Assembly: GCA_050253335.1 (NCBI GenBank)
Contig: JBFWJG010000017.1
Span: forward strand, 1 to 40,621
DNA: 40,621 bases
Direction: 5' to 3'
Origin: Deferribacterales bacterium
GTDB taxonomy: Bacteria; Chrysiogenota; Deferribacteres; Deferribacterales; Geovibrionaceae
Shown: one piece after another, positions 8,893 through 40,621 of the stretch
Layout of the letters: each line of letters opens with the position of its first letter
How positions within the stretch are numbered: the first letter of the stretch is position 1
Notes under the pieces: model-generated
Told to the model about the DNA's origin: nothing
What the model saw: only the letters and a program-made list of their open reading frames with translations
Database searches by the model: none
Made by a program: the position numbers and the translations under genes

Positions 8893-9876
8893 TTGCTTTT
8901 TTTAGGTATAGAGACTTCTTGCGATGAAACCTCAATGGCGGTGTACGACACCGCCCGCGGGATTCTTGCGACCCACACAGCCTCCCAGGCGGATATCCAC
9001 AACCTCTTCGGCGGGGTGGTTCCGGAAGTTGCCTCCAGAAACCACATCCTGAAGCTCGAACCGCTTTACATAAAATGTATGGCGGATGCAGCTGTCACGC
9101 CCGCTGATCTTGATGTTATCGGCGTTACCAACGCCCCGGGGCTTATCGGCGCGCTTTTTGTGGGTGTGGGATTTGCGAAGGGGCTGGGCTACGGGCTCAG
9201 GATCCCAGTAATGCCCGTGAACCACCTCTCGGCGCATATCCTTGCCGCAGAGCTTGAGCACAGGGAGCTTAAACCCCCTTACCTCGCTTTAATCATCAGC
9301 GGCGGTCACACGCATATCTACGATGTGGACGCGGCGCTGAACTTCCGCCTCGTGGCAAAAACAGTGGATGATGCTGCGGGTGAAAGTTTTGATAAAGTGG
9401 CAAAAATGCTTAACCTCGGCTATCCGGGCGGACCCGCCATCGAAAAACTGGCGAAATCCGGCAGAGGGGACGCTGTTCCTCTTCCGATCGCAATGAAAAA
9501 AGATGACAATTTCAGTTTCTCCGGCCTGAAAACCGCCGTGCTGAACAGCCTCAACAAAGGCATATACACAGGAGAAGACCTCGCCGCCTCATTCCAGAAG
9601 ACAGCGGCGGATACACTTGTTCTTAAAACCATGCGCATAGCCCGCAGGCTGAAAAGAGAGAATGTCGTCGTTTCCGGCGGCGTCGCCTGCAACGGCTACA
9701 TAAGGGAAGCCTTCAGAAACTCCTGCAAAAAGGGGGAAAATGTGTACTTCCCCTCGTTCCGCCTCTGCACCGACAACGGCGATATGATAGCCTACGCCGC
9801 CAGCAGATTTTACAACAGGCGCAGATTTTTCTCTCTGGAAGGAACAGCTTATGACACTCAGCCCGAAATCGGATAA
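8893..9876 (+). CDS. tsaD: tRNA N6-adenosine threonylcarbamoyltransferase TsaD
   Basis: LGIETSCDET, GGVVPEVASR.H, NHLSAH, SGGHT, DDAAGESFDK, FSFSGLKT, CTDNG.MIA. Confidence 0.97.
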   Translation: MLFLGIETSCDETSMAVYDTARGILATHTASQADIHNLFGGVVPEVASRNHILKLEPLYIKCMADAAVTPADLDVIGVTNAPGLIGALFVGVGFAKGLGYGLRIPVMPVNHLSAHILAAELEHRELKPPYLALIISGGHTHIYDVDAALNFRLVAKTVDDAAGESFDKVAKMLNLGYPGGPAIEKLAKSGRGDAVPLPIAMKKDDNFSFSGLKTAVLNSLNKGIYTGEDLAASFQKTAADTLVLKTMRIARRLKRENVVVSGGVACNGYIREAFRNSCKKGENVYFPSFRLCTDNGDMIAYAASRFYNRRRFFSLEGTAYDTQPEIG

Positions 9877-10837
9877 CATAATCACAAAAACCCTGAGCAA
9901 AAACATCTTTGTCGCCGCCCCCATGGCAGGAGTAAGCACCCCGCCCTTCCGACTCGCAGTGCGTGACTTCTTTGACGGAATAATCTTCTCCGAGATGGTC
10001 TCCGTGGAGGGGCTGATCAGGGGCGGCAAAAAAACCCTTGAGTACATTCACCTCACAGAAAGGGACAACCCTTACGCCATTCAGCTTTTCGGCTCCAGAG
10101 CGGAATCCTTTTCAGATGCCCTGAAAGTATGCGATGAACACTCCGAGGCCGACTTTTACGACATAAACATGGGATGTCCGGTGAAAAAAGTTCTGAAAAG
10201 CGGCAGCGGCGCGGCACTTCTCAAAGATACGGCTAAAATCAGGGAAATAATAAAAGCCGCCAGAAAAGCAACGGGAAAGCCCCTCACAATCAAGATCCGT
10301 CTGGGATGGGACAGAAACAGCATAAATTACCCCGAAGTGCTGGAGATCGCCGCGGGGGAAGGCATCGATGCTGTAAGTCTCCATGGGCGCACCAAAAACG
10401 AAATGTTTTCAGGCGATGTGGATTACGCCCTGATAGCCGATGCGGTAAGAAGAAGCCCTATTCCCTTAATAGGCAACGGAAACGTGGTCTGCACGGAGTC
10501 CTGCCGCCGTATGCTCGAAACAGGTGCGGCGGGGGTGATGATCGGCAGAGGCATGATGAAAGCGCCGTGGATTTTCAAAGCCCTCGCAGAAGGCAGAAAC
10601 CCGGAGGGCTACCTCACTCCGCAGGAAATACACTCGCTCATTTACAGAATGATCAAGTATGAAGCCCTGTACAGGGAAGAAAAATACTACATGGACGCAG
10701 TGAAAAAATATGCTGTCTGGTTCACCAAAGGTCTGCCCGAATCCACTGCTTTCCGTACAGAAATCTACACTGTGAAAACTATGGATGAGACCGTGGAACT
10801 CATTGACAGATATTTTGAAAACCTCCCTTCTGCCTGA
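9851..10837 (+). CDS. dusB: tRNA-dihydrouridine synthase (DusB-like)
   Basis: APMAG, SEMVS, IQLFG, DINMGCP, GSGAALL, KIRLGW, LHGRT, IGNGNV, MIGRG. Confidence 0.9.
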   Translation: MTLSPKSDNIITKTLSKNIFVAAPMAGVSTPPFRLAVRDFFDGIIFSEMVSVEGLIRGGKKTLEYIHLTERDNPYAIQLFGSRAESFSDALKVCDEHSEADFYDINMGCPVKKVLKSGSGAALLKDTAKIREIIKAARKATGKPLTIKIRLGWDRNSINYPEVLEIAAGEGIDAVSLHGRTKNEMFSGDVDYALIADAVRRSPIPLIGNGNVVCTESCRRMLETGAAGVMIGRGMMKAPWIFKALAEGRNPEGYLTPQEIHSLIYRMIKYEALYREEKYYMDAVKKYAVWFTKGLPESTAFRTEIYTVKTMDETVELIDRYFENLPSA

Positions 10838-13495: not shown

Positions 13496-14179
13496 ATGGG
13501 AAAAAAAGCCGCTGATGCGGAAAATCCCGTAAAGGAAGAAAGCTGCACCGATAAGCCGCAGAAAGATTCTGCATCGGGAAAAGAAAAAACAACGGAAAAC
13601 CCTCCTCAGAATGCCTTCAGAGCATCGGAGAAACCGGAAAGCGCAGAAGAAGCGCACGCCGGAAACCAAACGGAAATACCCCACGGATACGCACCAAACG
13701 GAGAAGAGTTCACAGGTATGCCTGAATACGGATTTCAGCAGCCGCCCTACGGCCATATGCCGCCGCCTCCCCCTCCTTACGGATACGGCTATATGCCGCC
13801 TCAGCCGCCTTACGGGTATATGCCTCAGATGCCGTACGGATATATGCCGCCACCCCCGCCGCCATACGGTTACATGCCGCCTCAGCCGCCTTACGGCTAT
13901 ATGCCGCAAATGCCTCATGGGGCACACCACACAGAGCACCACGGGGAAGACCCCTTCGGCATGCTCTTCGGCAAATTCGGGGAGATGATCAAGGAAAACC
14001 CCAATCTTTCCGCAGTGGGAAAAATTGCGGATGCGTCAGGAAGCGACTTTATCAAGGGAATGCTGATCGGGGCGGGCGTTGCCATGCTCTTTTCCAACGA
14101 TTCCATAAAGGATTCACTGATGAGTATTTTCTCTAAAACACTCGGCGGCATGACAGACGATGCCGAAGAGACCGAATAA
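13496..14179 (+). CDS. Membrane protein with Pro/Tyr/Met-rich repeats and a C-terminal GxxxG helix (YtxH-like, ferrosome accessory)
   Basis: RBS AAGGAGG. Acidic disordered N-terminus, PYGYMP repeats, HGAHHTEHHG, then SDFIKGMLIGAGVAMLFSN. Confidence 0.8.
   Translation: MGKKAADAENPVKEESCTDKPQKDSASGKEKTTENPPQNAFRASEKPESAEEAHAGNQTEIPHGYAPNGEEFTGMPEYGFQQPPYGHMPPPPPPYGYGYMPPQPPYGYMPQMPYGYMPPPPPPYGYMPPQPPYGYMPQMPHGAHHTEHHGEDPFGMLFGKFGEMIKENPNLSAVGKIADASGSDFIKGMLIGAGVAMLFSNDSIKDSLMSIFSKTLGGMTDDAEETE
13742..13921 (+). repeat. Coding low-complexity repeat: six PYG(Y/H)MP-type units arranged as two ~27-29 aa blocks
   Basis: PYGHMPPPPPPYGYGYMPPQPPYGYMPQM followed by PYGYMPPPPPPYGYMPPQPPYGYMPQM. The copies use different synonymous codons. 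Confidence 0.9.
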
Positions 14180-17279: not shown

Positions 17280-17999
17280 ATGCTTAACCTTCAACACGCC
17301 GAAAGCGGCCTCTGCTACATAATCAAAGGAACCCCGCAGGGGGAATCCGCCCAGAAGCTCGCTTCTCTTGGGCTTTATAAAGGCAGTGCCGTGACAAAGC
17401 TCGAAACTGATGACATAAAATATCCCACCGTCAAAGTTGACACAAAAAACGGAGTAAGGGTTATAAGCGGTCAGCTCGCAAAGCATATCACTGTCCGTGC
17501 GGGCTCAGGAGAGCCGAAACCATTTTACACTGCCCCCCTTTCATCCACAGTAATCACCCATAATCTCGGCAGGTGCGATAAAAACGCCGCCAGACTCGCC
17601 ATGCTCGGCATAAAGGAAAGAATAAAGCTGAAAATAATAAAATACCTGCCACCTATGGAGTATGTTGTTATGGTTAATCACAAAAACCGTGTGCGCATTT
17701 CAGAGGCTGTCGCCGCAATGATAATAGGCGATACGGAGAACAGGAAGAATTTTCAGTTCACATTCTCACCCAAAGGGGCGGAATTTAAAGTTAAAGGCAT
17801 AGCGGCAGGGAAGAAAATAACCGCCTTCCTCTGCGGTGTCGATATATGCACAGGCTCCGTAATAAGCATGGAAGGAATAGAAAGCGGAAAGCGGGTGGAT
17901 CTTGATGCTGAGCAAGATGTCGTTCTCCACACTCATGAAGGGCTTATAATAACCATGTCCGCAAAAACCGCCTCAATGATCGAAGTCGGCCATCATTAA
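17280..17999 (+). CDS. Tandem FeoA-domain protein
   Basis: Repeated FeoA-like segments (QKLASLGLYKGSAV, RLAMLGIKE, FLCGVDICTGSVI) with RVISGQLAKHITV and MSAKTASMIEV ends. Starts immediately after the fezB stop. Confidence 0.65.
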   Translation: MLNLQHAESGLCYIIKGTPQGESAQKLASLGLYKGSAVTKLETDDIKYPTVKVDTKNGVRVISGQLAKHITVRAGSGEPKPFYTAPLSSTVITHNLGRCDKNAARLAMLGIKERIKLKIIKYLPPMEYVVMVNHKNRVRISEAVAAMIIGDTENRKNFQFTFSPKGAEFKVKGIAAGKKITAFLCGVDICTGSVISMEGIESGKRVDLDAEQDVVLHTHEGLIITMSAKTASMIEVGHH

Positions 18000-18053
18000 A
18001 AACCGCACATCCTGCTCTTGTGTTCGTACTGACAGCGTTTAATCGGCTATTTC

Positions 18054-18148
18054 AAATCCCCCTCAGTCCCCCTTTAAAAAAGGGGGAAGCTATTGCAGAT
18101 AAAGGCAAAAAACACCCTCCTTTCCTAAAAGAGGGCGGGGGAGGATTT
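18054..18148 (+). repeat. Family-A 95-bp MITE/REP-like element, copy 1
   Basis: AAATCCCCC...CCCCCTTT-AA-AAAGGGGG-type hairpin...CCCTCCTTT-N3-AAAAGAGGG hairpin...GGGGAGGATTT; the ends are imperfect inverted repeats. Confidence 0.85.
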
Positions 18149-18214
18149 ATGTAGACATATTTTTTTCAGCTTTTGAAATAAACATGTAGTTGAATCACTC
18201 TATATCTGCCGTTC

Positions 18215-18292
18215 GTCACTCTGAACGCCAGTGAAGAGTCTCAACTTCCCGGCAATCTGAGATTCTTCACCCCCTACGGGGTTCAGAATGAC
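18215..18292 (+). repeat. Family-B palindromic element (GTCACTCTGAAC...GTTCAGAATGAC), copy 1
   Basis: Terminal inverted repeats plus the internal pair GTGAAGAGTCTCA / TGAGATTCTTCAC. A second copy is at 34062-34130. Confidence 0.85.
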
Positions 18293-18371
18293 GCTGCTCA
18301 TCTGTCATAACAATCCAAAACCGTACATCCTGCCCTTGTGTTCATGTCGGCAGTCTTTGAACAGCTATTTC

Positions 18372-18466
18372 AAATCCCCCTCAGTCCCCCTTTAAAAAAG
18401 GGGGAAGCTATTGCAGATAAAGGCAAAAAACACCCTCCTTTCCTAAAGGAGGGCAGGGGAGGATTT
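18372..18466 (+). repeat. Family-A 95-bp element, copy 2
   Basis: Nearly identical to 18054-18148. Confidence 0.85.
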
Positions 18467-18487
18467 AAAAAGAAGTCCTGTTTCCGC

Positions 18488-22462: not shown

Positions 22463-22990
22463 ATGAAGATACTTTACTTTCCGGGACTTGCCCATGTTGT
22501 TGAAAAATCAGTAAATACAAAGAACAGCCTGAAATATATCCACCTCGCCGGCCGCTTCCATGTTGACATCTACCCATACAGCCGCACACCTGAACTCAGC
22601 GATATAAAAGGTTATGACGCCCTTGTGGGCTCATCATTCGGGGGGTATTTCGCTCTCAACATGGCGGCACGGAAAAACATAACAGGAATCGCCGTTAACC
22701 CGTCATTCTATCTGGACAAGCGAATACGGATGCTGAAAGTCACAGGAGACGGGCTGGATCACATTGACGAGGACAGGCTCATAACTCTGAAATGCGCCGA
22801 ATCACTGAAAAAAAACGGAAACATGCTTCATGTTTTTATGAATATGGATGATGATGTGATTGAGCCTTCGGGGATAAAAAGAGCGTGCACTGAACACGGA
22901 ATAAATTTTTATCAGTTCGACAGCGGCGGTCACGAAGCCCATAACTTCGAAAAGGATATGATGCCCGTAATAATGGAGATTCTGAGATAA
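22463..22990 (+). CDS. YqiA/YcfP-like alpha/beta hydrolase (putative esterase)
   Basis: ILYFPG, nucleophile elbow GSSFGG, VNPS, DDVI (Asp), GGH (His). ATG at 22463 follows AGAGGGG. Confidence 0.8.
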   Translation: MKILYFPGLAHVVEKSVNTKNSLKYIHLAGRFHVDIYPYSRTPELSDIKGYDALVGSSFGGYFALNMAARKNITGIAVNPSFYLDKRIRMLKVTGDGLDHIDEDRLITLKCAESLKKNGNMLHVFMNMDDDVIEPSGIKRACTEHGINFYQFDSGGHEAHNFEKDMMPVIMEILR

Positions 22991-23145
22991 CAACCCCAAG
23001 GAAGGGGTTGCGCCGTGCGGAGCGAAGCCTTGCTTTGCAAGGCGCGAGCGTGTATTCAAAATTTCCATGGATGGTAAATTTTGAATTATCAGAACAAGAT
23101 GCTGCGCCGTGCGGAGCGAAGTCTTCCTTTGCAAGGCGCGGGCGG
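22991..23145 (+). repeat. Family-C three-hairpin GGA-loop element (22991-23085) plus a degenerate second copy
   Basis: CAACCCC-AAGGAA-GGGGTTG, CGCCGTGCGGAGCGAA, GCCTTGC-TTT-GCAAGGC, GCGAGCGTGTA, TTCAAAATTTCC-ATGGAT-GGTAAATTTTGAA. The core recurs at about 23104-23145. Confidence 0.85.
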
Positions 23146-23153
23146 TTCCTAAC

Positions 23154-23248
23154 AAATCCTTGCCCGCCCTCCTTTATCAAAGGAGGGCATTTTTGCTTTT
23201 AACCGCAACAGCTTCCCCCTTTTTCAAAGGGGGACCGGAGGGGGATTT
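23154..23248 (-). repeat. Family-A 95-bp element, copy 3 (reverse orientation)
   Basis: Reverse complement reads AAATCCCCCTCCGGTCCCCCTTTGAAAAAGGGGGAAGCT...CCCTCCTTTGATAAAGGAGGGCGGGCAAGGATTT. Confidence 0.85.
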
Positions 23249-23277: not shown

Positions 23278-24981
23278 CTAAAACTTCACAACCTTAGGCG
23301 TGTTTTTCGCAAATTGCGGCATTGTCATTCCGGCTTTTGCGTTTATGTATGTCGGGTCAGTGACAGTATAGCGTTTGCCTTCAAATGTCACATAATCGCC
23401 TTTCACGTTTGATTTAAAAGCTACAGCCGCCGCTATGTGCCCCGGATAATCCAGAAACACAGCATCCAGTCCGAGAAGCTGTTTCACCAGATAAGTGAAG
23501 AGTATGCTCCTGTCCTCGCAGTCTGAGTAAGGGTAGTAGATTGTTTCCATGGCAAAGAGGAATTTCTCCCGTCCGAACTGCTGATCATCCGTTGCATATT
23601 TAAACGCTGTCTGAACGAACTTGAGAAGGATATTCACGGCCTCCTCATCACTTTTGCCTTTTATAATGGGCGCAAGCTGAGTAAGAAGCGGCTTGCCTGC
23701 CCAGTCGGGAAGTCCGGCCTCTCCGTAAAGATTCACATCTGTCTGCGGATGATATTTCAGATAAACTATATCGTTCATATTATAAGGAACTTTTATACTG
23801 AAAGACTGCCCGCCGTAGCTGAAGCTGAGCTCTCTCTCGGAAATTTTTCTGCCGAAGTCAGGATAATCCGCCATGCGGAAGTCCATGGCTCTGTCCGCCT
23901 TGGGGTAGCTTTTTTCATAAGTGTACACACTGCCGAGATTTTTAATGAACCCGTCAGCGGAAACAGCGTAGTATCTCTTATCGTTAAGCGTGAAGAATGA
24001 GACTCCGTAAAGCTTTGTGCTTGCGGGAACAAGAAGGTACACATTGCTTTTGTCGTATGCGGTTCTTGTTTCATAGCCTGCTTTGCTGAGGATGAACCAT
24101 GTGAGCAGAACCTTTCCGTTCCTATCCGCCGCTATTTTTCCGGAAGCCTCGCTCACAAGGAGGATGAACCCCCAGTCAGTCATTTTAAGCTCTTTTCTGT
24201 ATTTAAGAAGGTTGTTAACCAAAGGCTCGTAGTCCGAAAGAGCCGCCTTCTCCCAGAATTCACCCAGCTTCTTCCCGTTAAGAGGCTCTTCCGCTCCAAG
24301 CTGAAGTTTGGGGTCATAGCCGACTTTAACAGGACTGCCGAAGAAAACAAATTCCAGCGCTCTCCCTTTTATCACCGGAGGAGCCACTACAACCGGCTCG
24401 GGAACCGGAACAGGCACAGGCTGAGGAATCACCGTAACTTCGGGTAAAGGCTTCAGCTGAGGTTTGGGCTCAGGCTTCACCACAGGTGCGGGAACAGGCT
24501 CAGGCTTGGGTTCAGGCTTAGCCACAGGCGCAGGAGCAGGCTCGGGCTTGGGTTCAGGCTTCACCACAGGCGCGGGAGCAGGCTCGGGCTTGGGCTCAGG
24601 CTTCACCACAGGCGCGGGAGCAGGCTCGGGCTTCACCACTGGCGAGGGGGGCATGGGGGGCAGGGGTTTGACAGGTTCCGGAACGATTATCGGCTTGGGC
24701 TGTACAGGTTTTGCAACAGGAAGCGGAGCTTTTTCCTCACTGGGCGGCGCCACAGGTATTTTTATCGGCTTGGGCTCGTCAATCTGCTTAACCGGTTCCT
24801 CTGTCTCGACGCGGATCCACATCTCTTTCAGAAAGGCGGTAAATTCCTTATCCCTTTCATCCTTAAACTGCTGGAACTCGTCCATCTGTGATTTCATATA
24901 TTCTTCAAATGTTTCAGCATTTATCACTGAGAAAGTGGAAAACACCGTGAGAATTATCAAAGCCGTTCTGCCGAAGCGCAT
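23278..24981 (-). CDS. Exported protein with a Pro-rich repeat linker and a transglutaminase-like C-terminal domain
   Basis: Signal peptide; helical N-terminus; PEPKPEPAPAPVVK repeats; C-terminal YPYSDCEDRS (Cys), YPGHIA (His), TDPTY (Asp). Confidence 0.75.
   Translation of the reverse strand: MRFGRTALIILTVFSTFSVINAETFEEYMKSQMDEFQQFKDERDKEFTAFLKEMWIRVETEEPVKQIDEPKPIKIPVAPPSEEKAPLPVAKPVQPKPIIVPEPVKPLPPMPPSPVVKPEPAPAPVVKPEPKPEPAPAPVVKPEPKPEPAPAPVAKPEPKPEPVPAPVVKPEPKPQLKPLPEVTVIPQPVPVPVPEPVVVAPPVIKGRALEFVFFGSPVKVGYDPKLQLGAEEPLNGKKLGEFWEKAALSDYEPLVNNLLKYRKELKMTDWGFILLVSEASGKIAADRNGKVLLTWFILSKAGYETRTAYDKSNVYLLVPASTKLYGVSFFTLNDKRYYAVSADGFIKNLGSVYTYEKSYPKADRAMDFRMADYPDFGRKISERELSFSYGGQSFSIKVPYNMNDIVYLKYHPQTDVNLYGEAGLPDWAGKPLLTQLAPIIKGKSDEEAVNILLKFVQTAFKYATDDQQFGREKFLFAMETIYYPYSDCEDRSILFTYLVKQLLGLDAVFLDYPGHIAAAVAFKSNVKGDYVTFEGKRYTVTDPTYINAKAGMTMPQFAKNTPKVVKF
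24473..24642 (-). repeat. 42-bp coding tandem repeat (about 3.7 copies, 14 aa unit EPKPEPAPAPVVKP)
   Basis: On the + strand the unit GGCTTCACCACAGGCGCGGGAGCAGGCTCGGGCTTGGGTTCA and variants start at 24473, 24515, 24557 and 24599. Confidence 0.9.
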
Positions 24982-33685: not shown

Positions 33686-33775
33686 AAACTAAAGCTCCTT
33701 TTGATATAGATCAGTAAAACTGATCTTAAAGACAGCAAAAAGTACCACAGGTTCTGAAAAAAGTCTAATTAATAA

Positions 33776-34051
33776 CAAAAATCCCCCGTCCTGCGGGATT
33801 TTTGTACACGCTCGCGGTTTGCAAAGCAAACCTTCGCTACGCACGGCGCATTTCCATCCATGGAAATGTGACGGGACAAATAATGCAATGACCTCTTTAT
33901 CCTGCCCCCAATCCTGCGGGATTTTTGTACACGCTCGTGGTTTGCAAAGCAAACCTTCGCTACGCACGGCGCATTTCCATCCATGGAAATGTGACGGGAC
34001 AAATAATGCAATGACCTCTTTATCCTGCCCTCACGTCCTGCGGGATTTTTG
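33776..34051 (-). repeat. Tandem array (period 123-124 bp, about 2.1 copies) of the family-C three-hairpin element
   Basis: Units start at 33789, 33912 and 34036. The minus strand reads CATTTCC-ATGGAT-GGAAATG, CGCCGTGCGTAGCGAA, GGTTTGC-TTT-GCAAACC, GCGAGCGTGTA, CAAAAATCCCGC-AGGAC-GGGGGATTTTTG. Confidence 0.92.
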
Positions 34052-34061
34052 CCCGCCGCAG

Positions 34062-34130
34062 GTCACTCTGAGCAAAGCGAAGAGTCTCAGCCCAATCAAA
34101 CAAGAGATTCTTCACTGCGTTCAGAATGAC
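34062..34130 (+). repeat. Family-B palindromic element, copy 2
   Basis: GTCACTCTGAGC...GAAGAGTCTC...GAGATTCTTCACTGCGTTCAGAATGAC, same layout as 18215-18292. Confidence 0.85.
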
Positions 34131-34168
34131 TGAAGGGAGAGCCATTACCATAAAATATCCTACCCCGT

Positions 34169-38252: not shown

Positions 38253-38729
38253 ATGAAAAAAGTGCTTATCCCTCTTTTCGCCGTCCTGCTCATTATTGAT
38301 CAGGCTACGAAGATCATAGTCAAAAACACGTTCATGCTCCATGAAACCCGTGAGGTCATACCCGGATTCTTCAACCTGACCTACATACTGAACCCGGGCG
38401 CGGCTTTCGGCTTTCTGGCCAGAATGAACGAGAACTACCGTCAGCTTTTCTTTGTGCTTGTTACTTTCATAGCGATAGCCGCCGTGGCTTATCTGCTTTA
38501 CAAAGAACACCACATGAAGCTGAGAGCGTTCTCTTACACTCTTATTATTGCCGGAGCGGTCGGCAATTTTATAGATAGGGTTTACATCGGAAAAGTGGTG
38601 GATTTTCTGGATTTTTATGTATCAGATTACCACTGGCCGGCCTTCAATGTGGCGGACAGTGCTATATCCGTAGGGGTCTGCTTGCTTATGCTTGACCTTT
38701 TTCTTCATAAAAGGAGTGAAAAGAAATGA
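38253..38729 (+). CDS. lspA: Lipoprotein signal peptidase II
   Basis: DQATK, NPGAAFG, GAVGNFIDR, VVDF, WPAFNVAD. Follows ileS. Confidence 0.97.
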   Translation: MKKVLIPLFAVLLIIDQATKIIVKNTFMLHETREVIPGFFNLTYILNPGAAFGFLARMNENYRQLFFVLVTFIAIAAVAYLLYKEHHMKLRAFSYTLIIAGAVGNFIDRVYIGKVVDFLDFYVSDYHWPAFNVADSAISVGVCLLMLDLFLHKRSEKK

Positions 38730-40279
38730 TAGTAAAACCTGAAAGAGCGCTGATCAGCGTTTCCAAGAAAGAAGGCGTAGCCGAATTCGCGAAAGAGCTT
38801 GCCGCAAGAGGGGTTGAAATAATCTCCACTGGCGGAACGGCCAAGCTTCTGAAAGAGAACGGAATCAAAATCACCGAAATCGGCGAGTTCACCGGATTTC
38901 CCGAAATGCTGGACGGCAGGGTAAAAACCCTTCACCCCAGAGTGCACGGCGGCATCCTTAACGTCCGTGACGATGCGGAACACCAGAAAACCATGAAGGA
39001 GCACGGTCTCAAAAACATTGATATTGTTGCCGTTAACCTTTACCCCTTTGAGGAAACTGTCTGTAAGGAAGGCGTAAGCCTCGACGAAATAATCGAAAAC
39101 ATAGACATAGGCGGCCCCTCCATGGTGAGAAGCGCCGCAAAGAACCACAAGTTCGTCACCATCATAGTTGACGGAGCGGACTACAAACGAGTTATCGAAG
39201 AGATGGATGCTCAGGGCGGAACCACCCTTGAAACCAGACGCGACCTCGCCAGAAAGGCATACGGCCACACTGCTCTGTATGACAGTATCATCGCAGGTTT
39301 CTTCAACAACCTTCTGGGCGTTAAGTTCCCCGATGAATACACACTCCCCGCGCGCAGGAAACAGGGTATGCGCTACGGCGAAAACCCCCATCAGGACTCA
39401 GCTTTCTACGTTCAGCCCCTTATTAAGGAGCCGGGCGTTTCCACAGGGGTTCAGCTCCACGGAAAAGAGCTTTCCTTCAATAACATAGTAGACATCAACG
39501 CCGCCGCCGAGATCATAAAGGACTTCTGCGGAGAACCGGCGATCACAATCATAAAACACACCAACCCCTGCGGCACAGCCACAGGCTCAACTCTCCTTGA
39601 GGCTTACGAGCGCGCCCTTGAGTGCGACCCCGTGAGCGCGTTCGGCGGAATAGTCGGCGCCAACAGGGAGGTGGACAAGGCCACTGCGGAAAAACTCGCC
39701 GAGCTTTTCCTTGAGGTCATAGTCGCACCCTCATTCAGCAAAGAGGCGAAAGAGATCCTTGAACAGAAAAAGAACCTCCGTCTCATAGAGATAGGCGATC
39801 TCTCCGGCGCGAGGGACAACGAGCTTGACGTTAAAAAAGTGACGGGCGGCATCCTCCTTCAGGACAGAGACCTTCACTCATTTGACGACATAGCCGCCCT
39901 CCCCTCACCCAGCAAACGCAAACCCACCGAAAGCGAGCTTAAAGCCATGGCTTTTGCGTGGAAAGTAGCGAAACACGTTAAATCAAACGCGATAATATAC
40001 GCCAGCGAAAACCAGTCAATCGGCGTTGGCGCAGGGCAGATGAGCCGTGTTGACTCCGCCAGAATTGCCGCTTTCAAGGCGAAAAAGCCCCTTCAGGGAT
40101 GCGTAATGGCAAGCGACGCGTTCTTCCCCTTCCGCGACAGCGTGGATCAGGCAGCGGAACAGGGCATAACCGCCATAATCTCCCCCGGCGGTTCAATCAG
40201 GGACGAGGAAGTCATTCAGGCGGCGGATGAACACGGCATAGCCATGATCTTCACCGGCGTCCGTCACTTTAAACATTAA
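38726..40279 (+). CDS. purH: Bifunctional AICAR formyltransferase / IMP cyclohydrolase
   Basis: RALISVS, STGGT, GRVKTLHP, IDIGGP, RYGENPHQ, KHTNPCG, GAGQMSR, SDAFFPF, RHFKH. Confidence 0.99.
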   Translation: MIVKPERALISVSKKEGVAEFAKELAARGVEIISTGGTAKLLKENGIKITEIGEFTGFPEMLDGRVKTLHPRVHGGILNVRDDAEHQKTMKEHGLKNIDIVAVNLYPFEETVCKEGVSLDEIIENIDIGGPSMVRSAAKNHKFVTIIVDGADYKRVIEEMDAQGGTTLETRRDLARKAYGHTALYDSIIAGFFNNLLGVKFPDEYTLPARRKQGMRYGENPHQDSAFYVQPLIKEPGVSTGVQLHGKELSFNNIVDINAAAEIIKDFCGEPAITIIKHTNPCGTATGSTLLEAYERALECDPVSAFGGIVGANREVDKATAEKLAELFLEVIVAPSFSKEAKEILEQKKNLRLIEIGDLSGARDNELDVKKVTGGILLQDRDLHSFDDIAALPSPSKRKPTESELKAMAFAWKVAKHVKSNAIIYASENQSIGVGAGQMSRVDSARIAAFKAKKPLQGCVMASDAFFPFRDSVDQAAEQGITAIISPGGSIRDEEVIQAADEHGIAMIFTGVRHFKH

Positions 40280-40320
40280 AATTGGCGGCAGGCAGGAAAA
40301 CAAATTTAAGTACACCTGCA

Positions 40321-40400
40321 AAATCCCCCTCTATCCCCCTTTAAAAAAGGGGGAAGCTGATAAGAACACCCCTCTTTCATAAAGAGGGGCAGGACAGGAT
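40321..40400 (+). repeat. Family-A element, copy 4 (shorter spacer; its right end runs into a family-C hairpin)
   Basis: AAATCCCCCTCTATCCCCCTTTAAAAAAGGGGGAAGCT...CCCCTCTTT-CAT-AAAGAGGGG-CAGGACAGGAT. Confidence 0.8.
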
Positions 40401-40621
40401 GTACCTGCCTGCGGACTATCATCAAAACAGCATTACAATTCCATGGATGGAATTGCGCCGTGCGAAATGAAGCCGAACCGAGTTCGGCGCGAATGTGTGA
40501 GCAGCAGGACAGGATGTACCTGCCTGCGGACTATCATCAAAACAGCATTACAATTCCATGGATTGAATTGCGCCGTGCGAAATGAAGCCGAACCCAGTTC
40601 GGCGCGAAAGCGTGAGCAGCA
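40389..40621 (+). repeat. Tandem array (period 115 bp, at least 2 copies, truncated by the window) of the family-C element
   Basis: Units start at 40390 and 40505. Reads CAATTCC-ATGGAT-GGAATTG, CGCCGTGCGAAATGAA, GCCGAAC-CGA-GTTCGGC, GCGAATGTGTGA, GCAGCAGGAC-AGGAT-GTACCTGCCTGC. Confidence 0.9.

Follow-up and report, generated by a model that had tools for sequence, protein, structure and literature searches.

Among the closest described systems is TwoAYGGAY (RF01731), which is listed in PMC2864571, for which CsrA binding was proposed in PMC4333381, and which a preprint (bioRxiv 10.64898/2026.09.22.753630) presents as a multi-copy, mobile-like element and possible Csr sponge; here and below, statements on published systems draw on parts of the cited sources. 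Judged from PMC4333381 and the preprint, TwoAYGGAY and the repeat described here (family C) are both dispersed, intergenic, structured repeats with two GGA-loop hairpins, a copy number that varies between strains and a proposed role as Csr/Rsm sponge. They differ in layout: TwoAYGGAY hairpins are sequential on a basal stem, whereas those of family C flank a central conserved domain; TwoAYGGAY loops read AYGGAY and family C loops ANGGAN/AGGAN; and TwoAYGGAY forms divergent doublets, whereas family C arrays run head-to-tail. Long duplications of gene ends, present in family C, are not described for TwoAYGGAY in the parts of these sources that we used. CsrA sites take CANGGANG hexaloop and CAGGA(U/A/C)G pentaloop forms (PMC4894983, PMC7652899), and CsrB/CsrC and RsmX/Y/Z have the same hexa- and pentaloop sequences as family C. 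These RNAs are stand-alone genes with a promoter, a terminator and many weak hairpins (PMC7652899), whereas family C is a two-site unit found at 97 places in an organism of the FliW type.

Several other repeat classes resemble family C in part. TD-2 (RF03162) is likewise a species-restricted, multi-copy structured repeat (PMC1950547). Variable duplications are made by YPAL/RU-2 of Yersinia (3-26 bp for YPAL; PMC2229807) and by IS1549/IS1634 (8-514 bp, with no mechanism proposed in the part of PMC2266710 used here). Family C lacks terminal inverted repeats, none of the DDE transposase families searched for was found in its genus, and it differs from YPAL/RU-2 and IS1549/IS1634 in its strand polarity, stop-codon targeting and CsrA-type loops. 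REP/REPIN sequences are also intergenic palindromes downstream of genes and are enriched in convergent and co-oriented gaps (PMC3733652); CGTC-tagged REPs have no known transposase according to the same source, and the GCGNAGCGAAG core of a CGTC REP resembles a second repeat of the genome under study, family B. Family C, unlike REP/REPIN, lacks a GTAG or CGTC end tag, is an asymmetric three-hairpin unit and occurs in a genus whose four genomes have no Y1 transposase. Nor does it have the layout of a MITE of a DDE insertion sequence, its ends being unlike each other and its duplications variable (16-83 nt) instead of fixed and short.

The window analysed here is a stretch of 40,621 nucleotides that makes up a complete contig (C17) of a Deferribacterales genome (GCA_050253335.1; hereafter G000), and its last letters lie inside a 115-nt tandem repeat 3' of purH (38726-40279, + strand; Pfam AICARFT_IMPCHas and MGS). 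The gap behind purH holds a family A double hairpin (40321-40391), a member of a separate repeat family tied to DUF559 genes in relatives, and then family C units on the + strand: hairpin 3 of a 5'-truncated unit (40389-40408; loop C-AGGAU-G, GGA at 40397), a full unit (40430-40539; covariance model R2 82.8 bits, fold z -3.2) and the next unit (40545-40621), interrupted by the contig end. In the full unit, hairpin 1 (40436-40455) has the loop AUGGAU with GGA at 40445, the core with its variable hairpin 2 begins at 40456, and hairpin 3, with the loop AGGAU and GGA at 40512, is followed by an A/T-rich tail; hairpin 1 of the interrupted unit carries a G-to-T change in its closing pair. The repeat resumes at the start of contig C43 and extends to purD, and in a complete relative (G003) purH and purD are adjacent with one family C copy between them, just before purD; the purH array is therefore intercistronic and is also the purD leader. 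Neither a sigma-70 site nor a + strand terminator was found at 40200-40621, and an Rfam scan of the window gave two matches, both at chance level. RNA data came from one compost metatranscriptome run, as contigs only, containing 0.20 of the words; a 530-nt contig covers 40007-40544 and, being assembled from a relative, is uninformative on transcription.

The original prediction had read loops in this window as CsrA/RsmA sites lying always on the sense strand just 3' of a gene, and all four loop sequences that it gave are present: CAAGGAAG at 22997-23004 (+), in a stem that starts at 22991, 1 nt past the TAA at 22988-22990; CATGGATG at 23066 and 40442; ACAGGATGT at 40394 and 40509; and GCAGGACG on the - strand at 33794-33787 and 34041-34034. 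The first belongs to a full unit that runs from the hydrolase stop codon at a convergent locus (22985-23096, +; loops AAGGAA and AUGGAU, GGAs 69 nt apart), with a partial, core-only unit behind it (23096-23144, +). The gap between the GT4 and dsbA-like genes holds, on the - strand, a full unit (33765-33874; 106.9 bits) and a second unit (33892-33997) with a preceding hairpin-3 remnant (to 34050). A position just 3' of a gene is borne out for the hydrolase copy but not at purH and GT4, where other repeats stand between the stop codon and the first GGA hairpin, which lies about 110-120 nt past the stop. The CAGGATG motif reported on the tex strand of two 151-bp repeats (17999-18149 and 18317-18467, - strand) does occur there, at 18008-18014 and 18326-18332 on the - strand, but no GGA-loop hairpin forms in either repeat (fold z +0.95 and -0.35). 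Each copy holds the 3' half of hairpin 3 and a family A element, and the motifs look like leftover halves of hairpin 3.

An iterated profile found 160 copies of family C at 97 loci of G000, none of them inside a called gene (genes from our own gene-finder run). The unit is about 105 nt long with fixed polarity and three hairpins, in the order hairpin 1, core CGCCGTGCG-N-AGCGAAG, a variable 7-bp hairpin 2, CGCGAGCGTGT, hairpin 3 and an A/T-rich tail, and its consensus fold comprises three separate domains without a closing stem. Across 40 aligned copies 89.7% of cells were paired and two-sided changes were seen in 21 of 29 pairs, a covariation reached by 0 of 500 shuffles. Covariation by itself is no proof of RNA function, because stems can swap or be corrected at the DNA level. 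Tandem arrays are head-to-tail with periods of 84-256 nt, and no locus among the 97 mixes strands. A fixed spacing of about 45 nt between GGA hairpins, put forward for bridging by one CsrA dimer, does not hold: in all 93 full units the paired GGAs lie 67-69 nt from each other, and the 48 nt at purH is a gap between tandem units (44-164 nt over 18 pairs). The within-unit distance is slightly past the CsrA bridging range of 10-63 nt (PMC7652899), and folding shortens it.

Counts of the exact core are 99, 60, 90 and 233 for the four genomes that make up the genus set, 3 and 2 for two sister-genus genomes and zero for 35 others. The covariance model recovered weaker relatives in 18 of 41 genomes, and those inspected in sister genera keep the GGA loops and have a different core. 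A metagenome scan gave 37 stretches with a match, 28 of them in one assembly and 9 elsewhere that lack the hairpins and match the core by chance; viral contigs gave none. With the Rfam model of TwoAYGGAY the best score was 22.4 bits (gathering score 43), outside the listed family C copies, and there was no match in the window; against TD-2 (gathering score 48.7 bits) one family C copy among 150 candidates reached 33.8 bits (E 0.003). Literature searches on CsrA-linked palindromic repeats, long variable duplications and Geovibrio intergenic repeats found no paper on family C.

The likeness of the outer loops to CsrA/RsmA sites is far above chance. Among 137 parsed copies (of 160), a C-A(N)GGAN-G loop caps hairpin 1 in 102 and hairpin 3 in 120, and on the opposite strand in 0 of 137; both hairpins carry it in 93, a paired arrangement shared with TwoAYGGAY. 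The loops comprise both the CANGGANG hexaloop and the CAGGA(U/A/C)G pentaloop form. When 133 distinct copies were chosen by stem pairing alone, the hairpin-1 loop read C (131), A (131), any base, G (123), G (130), A (131), any base, G (133). The GGA is retained where the loop bases beside it drift. When G000 copies were compared with their G003 orthologues, it had changed at 1 of 207 aligned sites (a count that excludes hairpins lost in one of the two genomes), against 38 of 106 for the variable loop bases and 44% for four-fold codon sites. Hairpin 3 is present in both genomes at 39 of 42 orthologous loci and hairpin 1 at 26 of 42, and antisense copies also keep the GGA.

The presence of csrA and fliW was confirmed; both are encoded, side by side, on contig C12. 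The CsrA protein is nearest to Bacillus-type structures, has a FliW-type C-terminal extension and keeps the RNA-binding positions L2, L4, R6, V40, V42, R44 and I47. Both flagellin leaders combine a C-AAGGAA-G loop, the same as in the copy at 22997, with a GGA Shine-Dalgarno. The flagellin-related sites of G000 are C10:7882, C10:19254 (- strand) and C12:6292, and the two flagellin-domain frames on C10 are unusually long, at more than 1000 codons. CsrA specificity differs among homologues (PMC13443453). We expect with good confidence that family C loops bind the G000 CsrA in vitro, and family C, if transcribed, would probably bind CsrA.

The abundance of these loops speaks for a reading in which selection would maintain the copies as a scattered sponge for CsrA, whether set free from 3'-UTRs or acting within mRNA, with tandem growth raising valency. 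Family C contributes 206 GGA hairpins and a further 50 lie between genes, compared with 2-11 for six control loops; those of the extra 50 that fall in co-oriented gaps are 26 sense and 4 antisense; and a second family of about 135 nt with the same end loops (35 long matches, a few of them chimeras with family C) has 19 sense copies to 1 antisense. All 18 model-matching genomes encode csrA, no match occurred in five csrA-less genomes, and one organism with FliW is known to have an mRNA sponge (PMC4894983). We nonetheless consider such selection somewhat unlikely: 18 of 36 csrA-positive genomes have no model match, kin with the same csrA-fliW system range from 0 to 233 in their exact-core counts (kin being non-independent), the duplications would account for the arrays, no promoter-like site or + strand terminator was found at the purH array, and neither invariable sense orientation nor the 45-nt spacing survives.

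Some units are placed such that they could act on the next gene. The hairpin-3 GGA is followed by a start codon at a distance of 38-59 nt in 11 of the 93 full units, and in 7 of these 11 a ribosome-site GGA is 23-36 nt away, within the bridging range given in PMC7652899. Hairpin 3 could then tether CsrA and be bridged to the next gene's Shine-Dalgarno, as in glgC, giving discoordinate operon control, for example of purD; intercistronic CsrA binding has been reported in C. jejuni (PMC4894983). We regard cis operators of this kind as quite unlikely to explain family C, given that they would involve only a minority of units, that 22 of the 97 loci are convergent without a downstream start and that the flanking genes have no common theme.

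Orientation was assessed genome-wide. At the 50 G000 loci between co-oriented genes, 42 copies or arrays are sense and 8 antisense (p 1.2e-6), and the other loci of the 97 comprise 22 convergent, 4 divergent and 21 at contig edges. Orientation is thus non-random, as the original prediction had proposed from three loci, but not always sense, with eight antisense loci and four between divergent genes; moreover, the hydrolase and tex loci that had entered the earlier comparison are convergent, and one gene is necessarily sense there. Divergent gaps make up 201 of the 713 G000 gaps of at least 100 nt, and family C therefore avoids them. In G003, where the count took in 2.8 of 3.0 Mb, 65 of 83 co-oriented loci are sense, with 2 more mixed, 38 convergent and 8 divergent; because 51 of 62 comparable loci are common to both genomes, these are not independent samples. 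Hairpin 1 starts no more than about 12 nt from the sense stop codon in 24 of 79 first copies, and many copies lie between genes inside operons. Families A and B show no strand bias but, being near-palindromic, are weak strand controls.

The leading strand holds 88 of 129 G003 loci (origin and terminus taken from GC skew), and stems have swapped between G000 and G003 orthologues, which indicates gene conversion and would fix a consensus without locus-by-locus selection. These observations lend themselves to neutral DNA palindromes oriented by replication, with loop identity as an artefact of conversion. We disfavour this reading as very unlikely. Lagging-strand genes still have more sense than antisense copies (11:7 in G003, 7:2 in G000); a logistic fit over the 129 G003 loci that also took replication into account gave significant odds of 2.9 for gene direction (p 8e-5), next to 1.6 for the leading strand (p 0.03); and across genera the loops persist where the core changes. 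The orientation of family C thus depends more on gene direction than on replication direction.

The DNA in front of family C recurs behind the array at 46 of 195 testable arrays, compared with 7 of 582 shuffled pairs. The downstream duplicate starts at a nearly fixed place after the tail (+39 to +55 in most cases), is 16-83 nt long (one of 128) and in 28 of 33 gene-touching cases is the end of the upstream sense gene, with the junction -8 to +12 nt from the gene end in 21 of the 28. The last codons are duplicated behind the repeat for 41 of 187 genes with family C behind them, 1 of 60 with family A, 0 of 48 with family B and 7 of 4351 without any repeat, of which 5 have a longer GGA-hairpin variant or a decayed family C; the split into 41 of 122 sense and 0 of 65 antisense follows from geometry and is not separate evidence. 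A strand-blind test on masked sequence, in which masking hides part of the duplicate, yielded 18 of 215 (family C), 4 of 79 (A), 0 of 80 (B) and 5 of 1198 (plain gaps). Gene-end duplication was also seen at 5 of 25 loci of another genome of the genus (G001) and the sister genus; it is absent from the three window loci, as from three quarters of arrays. Element remains accompany about 8 of the 46 duplications and are possibly decayed tandem second units, not insertion marks.

Orthologues were available for 37 duplicated loci, with the element present in 27 and absent in 10. At 6 of the 10 element-less sites the duplicated segment is present once, with matching DNA downstream of it, and 3 of these 6 retain no trace of the element; in three element-less comparisons the junction falls in or just before the stop codon, the new stop coming from the element side. 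Copies truncated at the 5' end and short homology at 5' junctions also exist. Gene-end duplications together with empty sites in relatives argue for polar insertion with long duplications, and we hold it highly probable that family C is a mobile repeat of this kind. Differences between duplicate copies are synonymous in 32 of 40 cases, which suggests allele exchange between strains, as though alleles of different strains had come together in the duplicated gene-end remnants. At G000 C32 (~9200-9400) and C33 (~10500-10700) remnant and live gene differ almost only synonymously (10 of 10 at C32). Separately, at two G003 sites (~2,535,700 and 1,130,100, - strand), involving a DUF1385 gene and a second gene, the element stands behind a duplicated ribosome site and first codons of the downstream gene, with a short false start in front of the element.

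No mobilising enzyme was found among the gene families searched in the genus. Transposases of the Y1 (Y1_Tnp), DDE_Tnp_1 (PF01609) and DUF772 (PF05598) types are absent from all four genus genomes; RVT_1 is absent from three, and the RVT_1 gene of the fourth (G001) has no adjoining family C match. The only GIY-YIG proteins in G000, G001 and G003 are UvrC-sized, and the covariance model had no match at the sole Y1 locus of a sister genus. No enzyme candidate emerged from eight G003 genes that have family C on either side or from 16 of 17 accessory neighbours; the accessory neighbours included one integrase fragment and the DUF559 gene. DUF559 was rejected as a partner of family C, as it goes with family A: stand-alone DUF559 genes (~115 codons) have family A alongside in 7 of 7 cases and on both sides in 6 (L270-L276, in G014, G002, G003, G005, G012, G010 and G011), an arrangement like that of RAYT genes with REPs. 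G000 has 66 family A copies and no stand-alone DUF559 gene, so the genomes compared could lack a partner of family C in the same way.

This last point bears on a further reading, in which the loops would serve the element's own spread by being recognised by a trans-acting nuclease or RNA-binding factor, possibly co-opted CsrA, with no regulatory value to the host. Family A, with its nuclease-like DUF559 partner in relatives but not in G000, illustrates that such a partner can be absent; the two families that duplicate gene ends have only GGA end hairpins and polarity in common; and 5' truncation with short 5'-junction homology points the same way. Against this, no Y1, DDE_1 or DUF772 gene occurs in the four genus genomes and a reverse transcriptase in one only, the genes with family C on both sides are housekeeping genes, and old orthologous copies still keep the GGA. 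We treat this reading as a tentative possibility.

Other repeats accompany family C. The second family that duplicates gene ends, of about 135 nt, has GGA end hairpins like those of family C around a different centre and is found in G000 at C8:46994-47128 and on C21, C23, C32, C41, C45 and C121, as well as in G003. A further family of long A/T-rich hairpins (for example after C29:15125) takes up some of these positions behind stop codons, among them several G003 sites that are empty of family C. Further family A elements of the window lie at 18054-18149, 18372-18467 and 23154-23248, and the CGTC-type palindromic pair of family B (76 copies), whose GAGCGAAGCGAAG motif resembles the family C core, at 18208-18295 and 34060-34135. 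The window also contains coding repeats: 42-nt proline-rich tandem units at 24414-24665 in a gene without a Pfam match (23278-24981), and 24-27-nt proline/tyrosine units at 13739-13930 in the frame 13496-14179.

The explanation that we favour, with modest confidence, is that family C is a non-autonomous, polar mobile repeat embedded in mRNAs, the outer loops of which probably bind CsrA. On insertion into the coding strand, the 5' end of the element would come to lie at a stop codon or close to one, and the preceding 15-80 nt would be copied behind the 3' tail; recombination between copies could then generate tandem arrays of varied period or remove the element. Read as part of mRNAs, the two outer loops would be bound by CsrA, and selection would retain them while stems swap between copies. 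The net effect would be at least 200 CsrA docking sites dispersed in ordinary mRNAs, with mild titration and local effects on the gene that follows; this proposal does not involve a dedicated small RNA made from 3'-UTRs. A sponge role is plausible, although we think it doubtful that titration by family C matters to the cell, and the mode of insertion, not sponge selection, may be what places the copies in sense orientation close to stop codons. A bolder formulation, which we consider unlikely, is an as yet undescribed class of mini-elements, enzyme-less and strand-polar, that would insert at stop codons by a step linked to RNA or transcription in which the gene end is duplicated, with CsrA-type loops needed for that step or for retention, and that would form a genome-wide CsrA sponge in a FliW-type bacterium.

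Family C is real and looks like a product of selection: a mobile repeat of fixed polarity that carries CsrA-type loops. The idea of a Csr sponge made of repeats has already been published for TwoAYGGAY, and family C is an independent example of the same puzzle of a mobile-like repeat with Csr loops; what is new here are the gene-end duplications behind the repeat and their reading as polar insertion, which offer a handle on how repeats that have no known enzyme spread. Joint control of CsrA by FliW and RNA antagonists in one species was given as an open question in the part of a 2020 review used here (PMC7652899). The genus combines csrA-fliW with more than 200 textbook CsrA loops in mRNA-strand repeats, which bears on that question; if the sponge formulation is true, FliW and RNA antagonists would act together in one bacterium.
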